64,000 nt of DNA from an uncultured Acidobacteriota bacterium (GTDB taxonomy: Bacteria; Acidobacteriota; Thermoanaerobaculia; UBA5066; DATFVB01): assembly GCA_963813155.1 (NCBI GenBank), contig CAWEYG010000002.1, positions 608,001 to 672,000 on the forward strand, given 5' to 3'. The notes below the pieces were generated by a model. It had not been told where the DNA came from. It did no database searches and worked only from the letters and a program-made list of their open reading frames with translations. Every line of letters starts with the position of its first letter. The stretch's first letter is position 1. Shown here piece after piece: positions 38,728 through 43,890 of this stretch. Both the position numbers and the translations under genes were made by a program.

Positions 38728-39165
38728 ATGAAATGCCTCGCGATCCTCGGTTCGGTCCTGCTCGGCGTCGCTCCCCCGGCCTTCGCCGGCGGAGGCTCGG
38801 ATCTCACGTTCCAGATCTTTCCCGACTTCGGCGTCTCTTCCGACAACGCCACGATCTGCCGCGTCACGGTGACGAACTACTCCGGAGACCCGCTCGACGG
38901 ACGCCGCATCGGATTCGAGGCGTCCGCGATCGAGAACGGAGTCGTCGTCGAGCGCGAACGGGGCCGCTTCCAGGGGATCCTGCGAAACGGAGAAAAGGCG
39001 GAAACGCTGATCGGCTTCAACGGAGTTTTTCGATATTTTGACGTCGTGGAGGCCCCGGTTTCCGGGCGCTCGCGTTCGGGAGGTTCGGCCCGCGGGCGCA
39101 AGGGCGCCTCGAAAACCGCGAAATCCAAGCCCGCTTCGAAGCCGCGAACGAAAAAGACGAATTAG
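38728..39165 (+). CDS. Secreted hypothetical protein with Lys-rich tail
   Basis: AAAGGAG SD; signal peptide ending AFA; beta-rich domain; basic tail. Confidence 0.65.
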   Translation: MKCLAILGSVLLGVAPPAFAGGGSDLTFQIFPDFGVSSDNATICRVTVTNYSGDPLDGRRIGFEASAIENGVVVERERGRFQGILRNGEKAETLIGFNGVFRYFDVVEAPVSGRSRSGGSARGRKGASKTAKSKPASKPRTKKTN

Positions 39166-39187
39166 AATCGTCGGGAGGAGGCCCATC

Positions 39188-39745
39188 ATGAAACCCTTGC
39201 GCCGTCTCTGGATTCTCGCTCCACCGTTCCTGTTGCTGACTGCGCTCTTCGGCTGCTCGACCTCGAAATCGGCCAGCTCCGCCGCCGTGCCGCCCGCCTC
39301 CGCGGGCCCGCAACTGACCGCGATGATCGAAGGCCGGAGCGGAAGCGCGCTCACCGGCACGGCCACGTTCACCCAGAGCTCGGGAGCCGTCCACATCGTC
39401 GTCGACGTCAACAACGCGCCGGAAGGCGTCCACGCGGTTCACCTCCATGAAAAAGGTGACTGCGCGGCGCCCGACGCGAGCTCCGCGGGAGGCCACTTCA
39501 ACCCGACCCACATGTCCCACGGCTCGCCCGACTCGCCGAATCACCACGCGGGAGACTTCGGAAACATGACGGTCGGGAACGACGGGCACGGGCACCTCGA
39601 GCTTGATTCGACGATCCTCACGATCGCGCCGGGCGAGATGTCGGTCTCCGGCCACGCCGTCGTCGTGCACGCGAACGCCGACGACATGACGACCCAGCCG
39701 ACCGGAAACGCCGGCGGGCGGATCGGGTGCGGAGTGGTGAAGTAA
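39188..39745 (+). CDS. sodC: Cu/Zn superoxide dismutase, lipoprotein
   Basis: Lipobox LFGC; HAVHLH..G.C, AGGHFNP, HG.P...HAGDFGN, VVH...DD, GNAGGRIGCG. Confidence 0.93.
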   Translation: MKPLRRLWILAPPFLLLTALFGCSTSKSASSAAVPPASAGPQLTAMIEGRSGSALTGTATFTQSSGAVHIVVDVNNAPEGVHAVHLHEKGDCAAPDASSAGGHFNPTHMSHGSPDSPNHHAGDFGNMTVGNDGHGHLELDSTILTIAPGEMSVSGHAVVVHANADDMTTQPTGNAGGRIGCGVVK

Positions 39746-39746
39746 A

Positions 39747-39834
39747 ACCTCACCTTCGGCCTTCGGCCACCCCCTCCCGCGCTGACCAGTCGTCTGAAGG
39801 GCTGCCAGCTGGAGAGGGGGACGGGGGGTGAGGT
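39747..39834. repeat. REP-like palindromic element
   Basis: ACCTCACC...GGTGAGGT outer arms, CCCCTCCC...GGAGAGGGG inner arms, and a GGCCTTCGGCC hairpin. Confidence 0.55.
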
Positions 39835-39852
39835 CGTGGTAATGTTTTCGTG

Positions 39853-40182
39853 ATGTTGCGGCGTTTGCTCTCTTTCGTCCTCCTCGCGGCCCTCGCGACG
39901 ATCCTCGCCTCACCCTTCGCGGGCGCTGCGGAGGGCGCCGGCGCAATGGCCTGCTGCCGGGACGGCGCGAAGATGATCTGCTGCGCCCCTTCCGCCGGCT
40001 GCCAGATGAAGAGCTGTCCAAACTCCGATCGGGCGACGATGCTGCCGAGCCTCGAGCCGGCGGTCCCCGTGTCGACGTCCTACGAAATCGACCGGGTTCT
40101 CTGCCCGGATCCCCTCGTTTCTCTCCGAGCCGCGGCCGCGACTCTCCCCGCCCAGCCCCCCGACCAGCCTCCTCGCTTCTAA
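39853..40182 (+). CDS. Small exported Cys/Met-rich protein with Pro-rich C-terminus (candidate regulatory leader)
   Basis: TGgTAATGT 7 nt before ATG (leaderless); signal peptide; MACC...MICC....CQMKSC; ends PAQPPDQPPRF. Confidence 0.7.
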   Translation: MLRRLLSFVLLAALATILASPFAGAAEGAGAMACCRDGAKMICCAPSAGCQMKSCPNSDRATMLPSLEPAVPVSTSYEIDRVLCPDPLVSLRAAAATLPAQPPDQPPRF

Positions 40183-40228
40183 AGCTTCCGCGCCTCAATC
40201 CCGATTCGTTTTTTTGAGGAGGTGAAGC

Positions 40229-41402
40229 TTGAGGTCTTTCTCGAGTTCGAGGGTTCATTCGGTATTGCTACTCACGGCGCTCCTTTCTGCTCCCGCGGTC
40301 GCGCAGGAGAAAGCAATATCCCCCCAGTCGCTCGACTCCGGCTCTTCGCCGGTCGCTCTTTCCTTCGGCGATGACCCGGCCCGCAGGCTCGTCATCAACG
40401 GTTTCGGCGTCGCGACGTATGCCTACAACCTCAATACGAACGAGAACTCGTTTGCCGACAGCGCTCTCGCTATTTCTTTTTCAAAGCTGATCACGGACCG
40501 GATTTCGGTCTTCGCGCAACTGACGACCGCGCGCGAATCCGCTTCGCCGTTCGTCGGCGATACGGGAAACTTCGAAGGCGATGTTTCGACCGACATCGAC
40601 AATCTGCAACTCGCGTGGATGCCGTCACCGGCCGCCGGACTCCAGCTCACGTTCGGAAAATTCGATTCGCCGATCGCGCTGGAACGCGACGACGCTCCAT
40701 TGAACTTCCAGGCCACGAATTCCTTCACGTTCGACTTCGCGCGTCCCGTGAAGTTCACGGGAATCGAGGCGCACGAGGCGTTCTCGCCGAAGTTCGAAGG
40801 ATGGGCCATCGTCGGCAATGGCTGGGACAACGACACCGACAACAACAACGCGAAAACCGGCGCGCTCTACGCGCTCTGGAACCCGTCGCTGCGCTATCAT
40901 TTCGGCCTCGGAGTCATTCAGGGCGGCGAAAAGGAAGGTCAGACCGGAGATCAAAGGACGACGGCCGTCGCGACGATCCTGATGCAGCCCACCGATTCCT
41001 GGGTTTACGGCGAAGAGCTCGTCGCGGGGAGCGAGCCGCACGCGGCCGCTCGACGGCGGAACGGCCCGCTGGTATTCGGACATGTTTTATCTCCACCACC
41101 GCTTCGGACAGCACTGGGCGGGGACCCTGCGCGCCGAGTATTTCGACGACGCGGGAGGCTCGCGCACGGGAACGCGCCAGATCCTTCGCTCGGTGACGGT
41201 CTCTCCCCAGTATCTCGTCGGCGGCGGCTTCTACGGACTCTACCGAAACTTCGAGCATACGTCGCTGCGCCTTCCAGAAGTGACCGTCCGGCTCGACCTG
41301 AGGTGGGACCGTTCCAGCGTCGATGCCTTTCGAACGCGCGAGGAAGCCGTCGGGCGGCGCGACGCCTATTCCGCGACATTGCAGACCGTGTTTCTTTTCT
41401 AG
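40229..41402 (+). CDS. Outer-membrane beta-barrel porin, frameshift at ~41050
   Basis: Signal peptide; GKFD.PI..E, FTG, GNGWD...DNNNAK, TLRAEYFDD..G.RTG, LDLRWD; C-terminal Phe; GAGGAGG SD. Confidence 0.8.
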
Positions 41403-41411
41403 GAGAAGATG

Positions 41412-41981
41412 ATGGGAAAGCTTCCTCAAAGCGCGATCGAGACCCGGCTCACGGCGACGCTGTTCCTGCTGCTCCTCGGCGTCGCCAACCTGTTCGGAGC
41501 CTGGCAGGTGAAGAACTTCGCTTCGTTTTCACCCGCCGGAGTCGCCGCGACGGTCGCGCCGGAGGCCCATCACGACATGACGATGGCCTGCTGCCAGACC
41601 TCGGCCGCCGAGGAGAAGCCGGTCGACCTCGCCATGCTCGATCATCCCCGCCACCAGGTCAGCCGCGAGCTCCTCGTTCAGGACACGCACGTTCACGTCC
41701 CCGTTTACGCAATATCGGCCGCGCTGCTGTCGATGATCGTCCTGGGCCTGGTTCTCCCTTCGGGCGCTCGAGTCGCCCTGGTTCTTTGCTCGTTCGCGGC
41801 GCCGTTTCTCGATTTCGCGGGCCTTTGGGGCGCACACCTCTTTCCGTCGAAGGGAACGCTGTTCGGCCTCTTCGCGGTGGCGGGAGGCTTCGCCATGGGG
41901 CTCGCGTACCTCGTCGTGCTCGTCCTCACCCTGGCTCAGTGCTGGTTTTTCAGAAAGAAAATGGAGGCAAACCATGCGTAA
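41412..41981 (+). CDS. 4-TM membrane protein with HHDMTMACC loop and THVH motif
   Basis: AGGAG SD; hydrophobic helices; His/Met/Cys-rich segment after the first TM. Confidence 0.75.
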   Translation: MGKLPQSAIETRLTATLFLLLLGVANLFGAWQVKNFASFSPAGVAATVAPEAHHDMTMACCQTSAAEEKPVDLAMLDHPRHQVSRELLVQDTHVHVPVYAISAALLSMIVLGLVLPSGARVALVLCSFAAPFLDFAGLWGAHLFPSKGTLFGLFAVAGGFAMGLAYLVVLVLTLAQCWFFRKKMEANHA

Positions 41982-42549
41982 CATCTGTGCAGCCGGAGCC
42001 GCGCTCCTGATTTCCACATCTCTCTTCGCGCACGTGACTCCGAACGTCCAGCTCGTGCGGCGGGGAGAATTCATCCAATCGAGTCTGGCGGGGGCGGTGA
42101 AATTCTCCGAAAAGGTCCTGATGATCGGCGGTCCCGACATGGTGGCGATCAAGAACGCGACCGGCTGGAGACCGTCCGAAGAGGACGCGAAAATCTACAT
42201 TGGTCGCGACGCGACCGGCCGCCTCGTTGGGTCGGTCGCCTTCGTCTGGATGCCCTCCGAACACGGACCGATCGGGGTCGGCGCTGCTTTTGACGCGGAC
42301 GGGACGATACTCCGAGCCGAGGTCACCGATGTCGGAACCGAGCCGCTCGCCTGGGTGCGGCCCCTGATCGAGGCGAAGGGGCTCTCCGCCCTGGAAGGCC
42401 TGCGGCTGCAGGAACGCGCGAAGGGCTCCGCAATTGCCCCCCTCGTTCGGGGGAACATGACCCGCTATTACGCGGATGTGATTGCCGAGGGCATTACGCG
42501 CGCCCAGGCGCTCGAAAGGGTTTCGCGTGAGACGCCAGCCGCCCGGTGA
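41974..42549 (+). CDS. Periplasmic FMN-bind/RnfG-like protein lacking the SGAT flavinylation motif
   Basis: GGAGG SD; signal peptide ending LFA-H; G.LVG......EHGPI.VG.....DG.I...V pattern recognised by eye. Confidence 0.55.
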   Translation: MRNICAAGAALLISTSLFAHVTPNVQLVRRGEFIQSSLAGAVKFSEKVLMIGGPDMVAIKNATGWRPSEEDAKIYIGRDATGRLVGSVAFVWMPSEHGPIGVGAAFDADGTILRAEVTDVGTEPLAWVRPLIEAKGLSALEGLRLQERAKGSAIAPLVRGNMTRYYADVIAEGITRAQALERVSRETPAAR

Positions 42550-43103
42550 TCGGTCTCGCGGGAGAACGCTCCGGGAGGCGGCGATCCTCGCGGCGCTCGC
42601 GCTCCTCTTCGCCGCGGCTTCGAACCTGACGGCCCGCCCGGAGCGCCGCCTCGACTGGATCGGCAGGAGCTCCGCGGTTTCGAAGGCGGCCGTCCCGGCG
42701 GCGCCGGCCACGACCCCCGCCTCGTCTTCCGATTTTCCGCCGCACCCCGACAAGCCCTATCTCGAAATCACGCCGGACCAGGCGAAGAAACTCTTCGACC
42801 GCGGAGCGCCGTTCCTCGACGCCCGCCGCACGGTCCGTCTATCGCGAGGGCCACGTCCGGGGAGCCCGATCGCTTTCCGTCTGGGAGGCCGACCTCGACG
42901 GCAAGCTCCTCGCCCTCTCGCAGGAGAGGCTCGACCCGGCCGCACCTCTCGTCGCCTACTGCAGCGGCGGAGACTGCGAGGATTCGCATTCCCTGGCGGA
43001 ACGGCTCTGGTCGATCGGTTTCAACGACGTTCTCGTCTATCGGGACGGATTCCCCGACTGGGAAAAGCGCGGCTGGCCGGTTGAACGCGAGGCGAAAAAA
43101 TGA
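42546..43103 (+). CDS. Membrane-anchored rhodanese-domain protein, frameshifts at ~42560 and ~42835
   Basis: TM helix; EIT..QAK.LFD.GA.FLDAR, Y.EGHV.GA, VAYCSGGDCEDS, GF..V.VY..GFPDW. Confidence 0.75.
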
Positions 43104-43573
43104 AACGCGTCGCCCTTCTGCTCGGGCGAGTCGCTCTCGGCGCCGTCTTCCTCGTCGCCGCGGGACCGAAGATCGCCGACCCGCCGGGATTCGCGCACAT
43201 GGTCTCGAACTACCTCCTCGTGCCGGCGCCCGCGGTCAACTTCCTGGCCCTCTTCCTTCCGTGGATCGAGATGCTGGCGGGCATCGCGCTCGTCACCGGC
43301 GTGTTTTGGAGAACCGGCGCGAAACTCTCGGCGGCGCTCCTCGTCCTCTTCATTCTGGCGATCGGCATCAACCTCGCGCGGGACCACGCGGTCCAGTGCG
43401 GCTGCTTCGACGTCCACGCCGCCGAAAAGAGCCACGCCCAATTGATCGGAGAGATGCGGTGGGTCGTCGCGAGGGACCTCGGGCTTCTCGCGGTCGCCGT
43501 CGGGCTCTCCCTTTCTAAAGAGGATCGGCGAACGGCCGGCTTTCTGAGAGAATCCCCCCGGGAGGAAGAATGA
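43100..43573 (+). CDS. MauE/DoxX-family redox-associated membrane protein
   Basis: R..LG.VF..A...KI.DP..F, LPWIE...G..L, F.......ARD...QCGCF, RDLGL. Confidence 0.85.
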   Translation: MKRVALLLGRVALGAVFLVAAGPKIADPPGFAHMVSNYLLVPAPAVNFLALFLPWIEMLAGIALVTGVFWRTGAKLSAALLVLFILAIGINLARDHAVQCGCFDVHAAEKSHAQLIGEMRWVVARDLGLLAVAVGLSLSKEDRRTAGFLRESPREEE

Positions 43574-43890
43574 AGATCCGACTTTCCCTGATCGTTCTGG
43601 CCGGTTACGCGTCTCTCGCGGCGGCCGCCTACAAGCCCTCGAGCCTCTTCGTCCAGCGGTGCGCGAAATGCCACGGCGAAGACGGCCGCGCCCAGACCCC
43701 GAAGGGGCAGAAAATGAAAGCGCGCGATTTCACCGACGCCAAATTCCAGACGGACAAGACCGACGCGCAGCTGATCGACTCGGTCACGAACGGAACCGAA
43801 ATGGACATGCCCCCGTTCGGCAAGGTCCTCTCGGCCGCCGAAATCGAAAAGCTCGTCAAAGAGGACGTTCGGGGATTCGGGAAGAAGTAG
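43570..43890 (+). CDS. Monoheme c-type cytochrome
   Basis: Signal peptide; CAKCHG.DG, RDFT, MPPF. Confidence 0.88.
   Translation: MKIRLSLIVLAGYASLAAAAYKPSSLFVQRCAKCHGEDGRAQTPKGQKMKARDFTDAKFQTDKTDAQLIDSVTNGTEMDMPPFGKVLSAAEIEKLVKEDVRGFGKK

Follow-up and report, generated by a model that had tools for sequence, protein, structure and literature searches.

We analyzed a stretch of 64,000 nucleotides (nt), referred to here as the window, from an uncultured Acidobacteriota bacterium (GTDB lineage Thermoanaerobaculia; UBA5066; DATFVB01; GenBank assembly GCA_963813155.1, contig CAWEYG010000002.1, positions 608,001 to 672,000 of the forward strand). The window contains a small open reading frame (ORF), referred to here as the leader, that ends 46 nt upstream of a porin gene on the same strand. 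The ORF encodes 109 amino acids, or 110 if the alternative GTG start at 39850 is read. Its N-terminus, MLRRLLSFVLLAALATILASPFAGA|AEG, resembles a Sec signal peptide by eye and is followed by a cluster of Cys and Met residues (MACC, MICC, and CQMKSC), a linker, and the C-terminal sequence PAQPPDQPPRF, in which the Pro-Pro pairs are residues 102-103 and 106-107. The cluster, which contains neither CxxC nor CxxxC, is presumed to be a periplasmic site that binds a ligand or senses redox state. These features had been described in an earlier note made from the sequence alone, and all of its coordinates were exact when read against the sequence. Table 1 lists the features of the locus.

Table 1. Features of the leader and its neighborhood, in positions of the window (SD, Shine-Dalgarno sequence; TM, transmembrane; FMN, flavin mononucleotide; REP, repetitive extragenic palindrome).
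Feature	Positions	Strand	Basis or remark
Leader ORF, 109 amino acids and stop	39853..40182	+	Frame from ATG 39853 to TAA 40180-82
Sec-type signal peptide (residues 1-25), predicted cut after A-G-A	39853..39927	+	Inspection
Cys/Met cluster M32-A-C-C-x7-C-C-x5-C-x4-C55	39946..40017	+	Alignment
Linker of variable sequence and constant length ("ruler")	40018..40155	+	Alignment
C-terminal P-P-D-Q-P-P-R-F and TAA	40156..40182	+	Alignment; putative pause or arrest site
Anti-SD CCUCCUC, two Pro codons and first base of the Arg codon	40168..40174	+	Complementary to 40216-22
Porin SD GAGGAGG	40216..40222	+	Sequence reading
5' arms of alternative intergenic hairpin, AAGCUUC and CCUCAA	40182..40198	+	Constrained fold; second anti-SD
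Hairpin around the TTG start (40229-31) and first porin codons	40226..40247	+	Fold prediction
Extended -10-like element TGgTAATGT	39837..39845	+	7 nt before ATG 39853
SodC, periplasmic Cu/Zn superoxide dismutase, directly upstream	39038..39745	+	Pfam Sod_Cu 1e-38
Inverted repeat CCTCACC...GGTGAGG between sodC and leader	39748..39833		REP-like dispersed repeat copy
BBP2/OmpL-like outer-membrane porin, TTG start	40229..41402	+	Pfam BBP2 on both halves
Membrane protein, four TM helices (by eye), Aq_1264_TM-like	41409..41981	+	Alignment A4; language-model lead
Exported FMN_bind-like protein	41974..42549	+	Atlas matches 0.90-0.92 to "FMN-binding" clusters, lead only
Rhodanese-like ORF	42482-43084		tblastn matches to relatives in two overlapping segments
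MauE/DoxX membrane protein	43100-43573	+	Pfam; synteny in 8/11 loci
c-type cytochrome	43570-43890	+	Pfam; synteny in 6/11 loci

We found that the leader is conserved as a peptide. In an alignment of 25 leaders, which are 21-67% identical to that of the window, length ranges from 103 to 109 amino acids, except for P0006 and P0007 (123-124 amino acids), which are called from an earlier start. An n-region with Arg or Lys and a hydrophobic core can be recognized by eye in all 25. Residues C34, C35, C43, C55, P106, P107, and R108 are invariant, and M32, G38, and C44 are kept in at least 90% of the leaders. The Cys motif of the acidobacterial leaders contains vicinal CC pairs and no His, and CxC occurs in some divergent members. 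The earlier note had proposed a leader acting in cis, made of a signal peptide, Cys clusters, and a C-terminal Pro motif, and these parts are indeed kept across relatives. The motif that it named, QPP, is not the conserved one; PPR is, being invariant in 25/25 leaders, which usually end in DPPPR[G/A]-stop. Exactly one residue separates the Arg of PPR from the stop codon in 32 of 33 acidobacterial loci. Since the codons of the Arg and of the third Pro vary synonymously while the amino acids are constant, our data indicate that the peptide, and not the RNA alone, is under selection.

The distance between the Cys cluster and the Pro motif is also fixed. The last Cys and the PPR Arg are 52-54 residues apart in 25/25 aligned leaders and 52-58 in 32/33 of a wider acidobacterial set, although the approximately 45 residues between the Cys cluster and the ending are variable in sequence and constant only in length. 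A second leader family, in Gemmatimonadota (described below), keeps its last Cys 52-55 residues from its last Pro in 33/33 loci, exactly 53 in 20 of them. A ruler that stays fixed across a variable linker suggests that the chain works while it is still attached to the ribosome, and we regard the ruler as the strongest single argument for a function of the nascent chain. By our estimate, approximately 53 residues is about the span of the ribosomal exit tunnel plus SecYEG.

Leaders are rare in sequence databases and belong to no Pfam or NCBIfam family. A word-indexed search returned one match, and phmmer over 1.84 billion representatives returned 10 at E <= 0.001. Homologs are present in all six other genomes of the same family, in 23 of 175 genomes of the order (first profile), and in 5 of a phylum-wide sample of 401 genomes. 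The last two counts are underestimates, since a scan with an alignment of the downstream membrane protein (A4) gave 80 loci, with a porin adjoining the membrane protein in 79; these loci come from metagenome-assembled genomes (MAGs) of Acidobacteriota/Thermoanaerobaculia and of Gemmatimonadota and from one Eisenbacteria MAG. Pattern scans with the first leader alignment (A1) gave 10 pattern matches and no relative among genome contigs, and seven loci among metagenomes, one of them false (L062). Overall, a small leader lies 5' of the porin/membrane-protein/FMN-binding-like cassette in 71 of the 72 loci with enough upstream DNA. It is present in 36 of 37 acidobacterial loci, where 35 leaders are intact (PPR-x(-x)-stop), that of L108 is frameshifted, and L087 has none. 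In Gemmatimonadota, an analogous small ORF occupies the same place in 35/35 loci with enough upstream DNA. This family (L109-L147) lies approximately 1100-1200 nt upstream of the membrane-protein gene and combines a hydrophobic N-terminus with the motif CRHH...H.GH...PC[F/W]C..M, which includes CxC in all members, and with an ending of the PTPPPPNGLG-stop type (PPPPN-xxx-stop).

Among 12 genes scanned immediately after a leader, eight encode a BBP2 porin, one encodes a TonB-dependent receptor, and three have no Pfam family. Judged from these sequences, every target is an envelope protein, in most cases an outer-membrane channel. The placement directly 5' of a gene for an outer-membrane protein, which the earlier note had seen in the window, is the one published for CutF and CruR. 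In four loci (L023, L024, L040, and L041) the porin is replaced by an exported protein of approximately 320 amino acids with a CGSATCP(I/M)DPQSL N-terminus, which starts approximately 60-90 nt past the leader stop and has no Pfam family. The TonB-dependent receptor belongs to L043, where a distant leader is followed by a 140-nt gap. The leader ORFs are frameshifted in the MAG assemblies of L027 and L069 (G001) and of L108; the family ending is found in another frame as PPR-V-stop in L069 and as PPR-V in L108, where the stop is lost to the frameshift. These frameshifts are probably assembly errors.

In 18 of 20 homologous loci a TAnnnT hexamer begins 13-18 nt 5' of the start codon, an arrangement found at 0.6% of random genome positions, and none of the 20 loci has an SD before the leader. 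A conserved -10-like hexamer so close to the start, together with the missing SD, supports a leaderless or near-leaderless mRNA, as the earlier note had read the 109-amino-acid ORF. A strict sigma-70 scan found no -35/-10 pair, no terminator was found between leader and porin, and an Rfam scan of 39600-40400 returned two sub-threshold chance matches only. The 20 loci include L028 and L038, from genomes flagged as unpublished; these genomes, G002 and G138 (loci L006, L028, and L038), enter the -10 count as well as the codon, pairing, and Pro-Pro-Pro (PPP)-null counts below.

The Pro codons at the end of the leader also form a candidate anti-SD. The CCTCCTC of the window leader is perfectly complementary to the porin SD and overlaps the Pro codons, just as the earlier note had pointed out. 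The SD has a predicted pairing probability of 0.98 in the free mRNA and pairs with 40168-74 in the minimum-free-energy fold. Across 22 loci, the SD is predicted to be paired with the end of the ORF at a probability of at least 0.69 in 17. The SD pairing probability of the leader loci averages 0.93, compared to 0.705 for 209 control genes with a GGAGG SD. In acidobacterial DPPPR loci, CCT encodes the middle Pro in 16/16 (14/14 when the two unpublished genomes are left out). The first Pro is encoded by CCT in 12 of them, by CCA in 2, and by CCC in 2; all four codons occur at the third Pro, and the Arg is encoded by CGC, CGG, or CGA. Within a clade of five close relatives the third Pro again uses all four codons, and the first and second use CCT only. 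Of all Pro codons in the genome 8% are CCT, as are 27.5% of the middle codons in PPP, and CCTCC occurs in 47.6% of PPP triplets, so a naive argument from codon usage overstates the case. PPP segments served as the null. A contiguous helix of at least 7 base pairs (bp) is found in 23/34 acidobacterial and 31/35 Gemmatimonadota loci compared to 34% of PPP-segment nulls, and one of at least 9 bp in 10/34 and 6/35 loci compared to 5.7%. In two clades the complementarity extends over 9-11 bp (GAUCCUCCUC with GAGGAGGAUUG), and fewer than 1% of PPP-segment nulls reach so far. A CCTCC core lies within the last 30 nt of 29/34 acidobacterial and 29/35 Gemmatimonadota leaders.

The Gemmatimonadota leaders pair in a different register, CCU-CCG-AAC with (G)UUCGGAGG, and the C that precedes GGAGG is invariant in 35/35 loci. 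Pairing of their 8-bp helix holds in 86% of cells, compared to 32-59% when the helix is slid, and three of its pairs change on both sides. Covariation of anti-SD and SD, which the earlier note had named as a check on its proposal, is found in this phylum, with a score of 0.067 versus 0.034 that lies above all 500 shuffles; it is not found in the core pairs of the Pro-codon/SD helix, which never vary and call for caution. Our data support the Pro codons as an anti-SD for the family as a whole.

For the window itself the same role is only plausible, since the core pairs are invariant, the sequences are kin, some leaders lack CCTCC, and a swap test gave a weak result. Several observations weigh against our interpretation here. 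The 121-nt junction of the window folds no better than expected (z = -0.24; 67/200 shuffles fold at least as well). Its leader end is matched in pairing with the SD region by 13% of PPP segments of the same genome (and by 2.5% of ordinary ORF ends), and the frequency of CCTCC in PPP triplets given above points the same way. CCTCC is missing from the last 30 nt of 5/34 acidobacterial and 6/35 Gemmatimonadota leaders, although at least one leader without it (L077) has a C/U-rich stretch in the intergenic region instead. When leader ends and SD regions were swapped across phyla, the cognate partner was best in 17/33 and 19/35 cases, an advantage so small that we do not count this test as support. 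Since the sequences are related, all of these counts overstate their independence. The window leader ends in two diprolyls and not in the PPP usual for the family, and the Pro motif of CutF (see below) gave no detectable arrested band in LepB reporters (PMC9973294), which suggests that stalling may be subtle.

Predicted folds of the window junction also revise two points of the earlier note. It had described a second hairpin burying both the SD and the TTG start. The arms are where it placed them (AAGCTTC 40182-88 with GAAGCTT 40224-30; CCTCAA 40193-98 with TTGAGG 40214-19), and in a fold of 40160-40235 this intergenic hairpin is favored at -21.5 kcal/mol over the Pro-codon pairing at -17.1 kcal/mol. 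Outside the genus the hairpin is not kept as such, and only a C/U-rich stretch after the stop codon recurs; such a stretch is also all that same-genus relatives have in common with the window here. The TTG start is predicted to lie in a separate hairpin, 40226-40247; the same 9-bp start-codon hairpin, with some differences in stem sequence, is predicted in same-genus L027 and L028 (unpublished genome). The expectation that a ribosome at the end of the leader frees the SD was not reproduced by folding, since masking the footprint leaves a predicted pairing of 0.66-0.73 for the SD and keeps the TTG in its own hairpin, a further point against our interpretation. No proposed mechanism explains how the start-codon hairpin is opened.

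Two known systems resemble this arrangement. In Rhodobacter capsulatus, copper prolongs the stall of CutF (operon cutFOG) and turns the target on (PMC9973294; bioRxiv 10.1101/2025.02.05.636593). In Bordetella pertussis, copper relieves the stall of CruR (Bp2923) and turns the target off (PMC9426467). Copper acts oppositely in the two; the earlier note had proposed that metal shuts the operon off, a sign of response that sequence alone does not reveal. Similar to CutF, the leader is small (<150 amino acids) and apparently exported, with a Sec-type signal peptide by eye, and it combines a Cys metal motif with Pro repeats at the C-terminus. In both, the intergenic gap is short and RNA structure masks the SD, the latter being a prediction for the window. 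CutF acts only in cis, and by analogy the leader would do so as well. The window ORF passes three of the four rule-based filters for CutF-like proteins (Ozturk et al. 2023, PMC9973294), namely length (109 amino acids), PP, and a downstream porin; for the fourth, a Sec signal peptide cleaved by signal peptidase I, an n-h-c region with A-G-A was recognized by inspection only. The leaders nevertheless show no detectable sequence similarity to CutF. They have CC-x7-CC-x5-C-x4-C where CutF has CxxxC, they end in PPR-x-stop, and their target is an OmpL-like porin cassette and not a multicopper oxidase, in Acidobacteriota and Gemmatimonadota hosts. Their anti-SD lies inside the Pro codons, whereas we infer that the anti-SD of CutF lies in the intergenic stem-loop, because a construct without cutF can keep the stem-loop.

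The resemblance to CruR, the prototype of Pfam DUF2946, lies in an upstream ORF that heads an outer-membrane channel operon, in a Pro motif near the stop, and in a constant spacing of Cys and Pro motifs, which in CruR are 45 residues apart to within one or two (PMC9426467), compared to approximately 53 here. CruR itself has the motifs CXXC and RAPP, neither of which is present in the window leader. CruR is independent of its own signal peptide and of elongation factor P (EF-P), and it uses Rho-dependent termination over the 162-nt cruR-bfrG gap (PMC9973294), in contrast to a gap of 46 nt and complementarity to the SD in the window. The link to DUF2946 that the earlier note drew through CruR is not borne out by the family model, although the leaders may still be distant homologs. 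The window ORF has no Pfam match at E <= 0.01, none of the 25 aligned leaders matches the DUF2946 hidden Markov model (PF11162) at E <= 10, and the best PF11162 match in the whole genome (14.1 bits; cut-off 23.7) is at another locus. The CXXC (or CxxxC) of DUF2946 is not in the window leader, and RAPP about three residues before the end is in 0/25 leaders. A constant spacing from Cys to C-terminal motif, as in DUF2946, is found in 25/25 leaders (52-54 residues) at a different length. By the model, CXXC, and RAPP, the leader is outside Pfam DUF2946.

The leader is also similar to SecM, MifM, and VemP, exported nascent chains in which a C-terminal arrest opens a helix that masks an SD and the pull of translocation releases the arrest. 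These peptides monitor the export machinery, regulate SecA, YidC2, and SecDF, and have unrelated arrest sequences, whereas the leaders control a porin operon as their putative target and, to judge from the conserved Cys (or His/Cys) cluster, would respond to a chemical signal outside the cytoplasm. The endings of the leaders fit known stalling contexts. Starosta et al. 2014 (PMC4176338) reports that polyproline stalls ribosomes most strongly, that a diprolyl stalls them when Asp or Ala precedes it or when Trp, Asp, Asn, or Gly follows it, and that D, E, Q, R, and K before PPP are strong, EF-P-dependent contexts; judged by sequence, the endings DPPP, PPD, and PPPPN fall in such strong EF-P-dependent classes.

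On balance, we lean toward the ORF being a cis-acting regulatory leader of the CutF/CruR kind that works by stalling and unmasking, by analogy with these systems. Translation of the leader would begin on a leaderless mRNA, and the nascent chain would be directed through SecYEG by its signal peptide. We infer that the ribosome slows at the diprolyl or triprolyl-Arg next to the stop codon, at a point where the Cys cluster would have just emerged in the periplasm. A ribosome on the Pro codons would cover the CCUCC anti-SD, which would unmask the porin SD and make the operon translatable. If the leader is untranslated, or if the ribosome leaves fast, the Pro codons would pair with the SD again; in the genus of the window a second C/U-rich stretch just past the stop could also mask it. 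Events at the Cys cluster, such as binding of a thiophilic metal (for example, Cu(I)) or disulfide formation, would alter the pull on the chain and thereby the dwell time of the ribosome. We leave undecided whether the input is a thiophilic metal or thiol redox.

The metal version of this proposal has a close relative, in which co-translocational disulfides among the five or six Cys residues release the ribosome, so that the input is periplasmic thiol redox and reducing conditions or thiol blockage would lengthen the pause, with an otherwise identical mechanism. Such an input would suit the operon, with its MauE/DoxX protein, rhodanese-like ORF, FMN_bind-like protein, and cytochrome c, as well as SodC upstream; it would also suit the vicinal CC pairs and missing His of the acidobacterial motif, and disulfide-driven pulling is part of the CutF model (bioRxiv 10.1101/2025.02.05.636593). 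We nonetheless consider it rather unlikely, since the motif of the Gemmatimonadota leaders, with its many His and Met residues (CRHH...H..GH...PCFCD.M), looks more like a metal site, the partner membrane protein keeps M-x-M-x-CC and HVH, and SodC is itself a Cu/Zn enzyme. Plain translational coupling asks for less, as in ordinary SD-sequestering hairpins, where translation of an upstream cistron exposes a downstream SD: the leader would be a mere first cistron whose ribosomes open the SD helix, with neither regulated arrest nor sensing. The anti-SD does lie within the last five codons, where ordinary elongation would open the helix, and SD masking is common in this GC-rich genome, as the control average of 0.705 illustrates. 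Coupling, however, needs no signal peptide, invariant Cys, stop-adjacent PPR, or fixed linker. It leaves unexplained the invariant PPR one residue before the stop (32/33 loci), the four invariant Cys residues and the signal peptide, and a 52-54-residue ruler over a variable linker that recurs in the second leader family, and we therefore hold it to be improbable.

Two further explanations seem to us very improbable. One is control of transcription as in CruR, with a paused ribosome shielding the mRNA from Rho and SD masking only secondary. CruR also heads an outer-membrane transporter operon (PMC9426467), the leader of L043 precedes a TonB-dependent receptor by 140 nt, and some acidobacterial gaps reach 105-142 nt. 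The gaps are nevertheless short, with medians of 56 nt (Acidobacteriota) and 40 nt (Gemmatimonadota), and the window has 46 nt, versus 162 nt for cruR-bfrG, and the complementarity is aimed specifically at the SD. The other would make the leader a stable exported Cys-rich protein, for example a periplasmic metallochaperone or a porin-associated subunit, with the Pro motif serving sorting or proteolysis and the match to the SD a by-product of Pro codons. A conserved exported protein that is always beside the same porin and membrane protein would look like this, and the commonness of CCTCC in PPP triplets (47.6%) and the unexceptional duplex of the window agree with a by-product. Against such a protein, residues 56-101 are fixed in length and variable in sequence, which is unusual for a folded domain; the Pro motif lies right beside the stop codon; complementarity is extended and accompanied by compensatory changes beyond the Pro-codon background; and the analogs CutF (PMC9973294) and CruR (PMC9426467) are described as undetectable in cells. 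We also considered three export or maturation signals. Twin-arginine export was dropped because homologs lack a conserved RR and begin with MRL, MKP, or MKL, and a PEP-CTERM-type sorting signal because no hydrophobic helix follows the motif. A precursor of a ribosomally synthesized and post-translationally modified peptide was dropped because the leader has an apparent Sec signal peptide and no maturase family was seen in the scanned part of the neighborhood.

Beyond the cis-acting stalling leader proposed for the window, a wider generalization is possible, which we put forward tentatively and which may well prove too broad. The leaders might form an undescribed superfamily of exported nascent-chain sensors in Acidobacteriota and Gemmatimonadota, built from a Cys or His/Cys cluster, a linker of approximately 53 residues, and a DPPPR-x-stop or PPPPN-xxx-stop ending whose stall codons are the anti-SD. 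They would report periplasmic Cu(I) or thiol redox and gate a porin plus a membrane/flavoprotein electron-transfer cassette, with the ruler as the read-out of tunnel plus SecYEG. Exported nascent peptides that report extracytoplasmic copper have so far been represented by two proteobacterial DUF2946 proteins, CutF and CruR (2022-2025). The word "Acidobacteri" is absent from the main text of PMC9973294, and our literature search found no paper linking CutF-like leaders to Acidobacteriota or Gemmatimonadota. The present work contributes leader families missed by the DUF2946 model, found in two soil phyla that are abundant and poorly cultured; the motifs, the phyla, the target cassette, and an anti-SD built from the presumed stall codons are new here. 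The two families carry different metal/thiol motifs on the same linker of approximately 53 residues. If our interpretation is true, nascent-chain sensing would be a general principle, these families would be a natural experiment on a tunnel-plus-translocon ruler, and the porin/Aq_1264_TM/FMN-binding cassette would be tied to metal or redox homeostasis. The signature is recognizable and could help annotators with small ORFs of the sort usually called "hypothetical" by gene callers.

The genes that follow the leader keep their order, namely BBP2 porin, four-TM protein, exported protein, rhodanese-like ORF, MauE/DoxX, and c-type cytochrome. The membrane protein (191 amino acids) is syntenic in 9 of 11 fetched loci, and M-x-M-x-C-C and QDTHVH are invariant in alignment A4. 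A language model matched it at 0.95 to PF27139 clusters, which we treat as a lead only; a sequence search of the PDB gave no match, and a literature search for Aq_1264/PF27139 returned no paper. The MACC motif that it has in common with the leader suggests that the two proteins may bind the same species, and the membrane protein may be the metal- or thiol-handling partner of the leader. The exported protein after it has no Pfam match. The two segments in which the rhodanese-like ORF matches its relatives suggest different frames, and this split may be an assembly frameshift, either in the window or in the relatives.

The porin frame of the window is split at about 41047-41049 relative to intact homologs of 377-397 amino acids. 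Independent soil short-read contigs, which are identical to the window over 39995-40288, lack the extra base 41048 at full depth (16.2 of 16.2). The frameshift at 41048 is thus an assembly error, and a programmed frameshift or a pseudogene was rejected on the same ground. Upstream, SodC also precedes the leader in the same-family loci L045, L050, L051, and L055. Between sodC and the leader lies the G/C-rich inverted repeat (39748-39833), a possible sodC terminator or insulator. Its REP-like 23-nt core (39811-39833) has 12 genome copies at up to three mismatches, compared to one for the reversed control, and positions 39805-39836 alone (approximately 30 nt) are common to many unrelated soil contigs.

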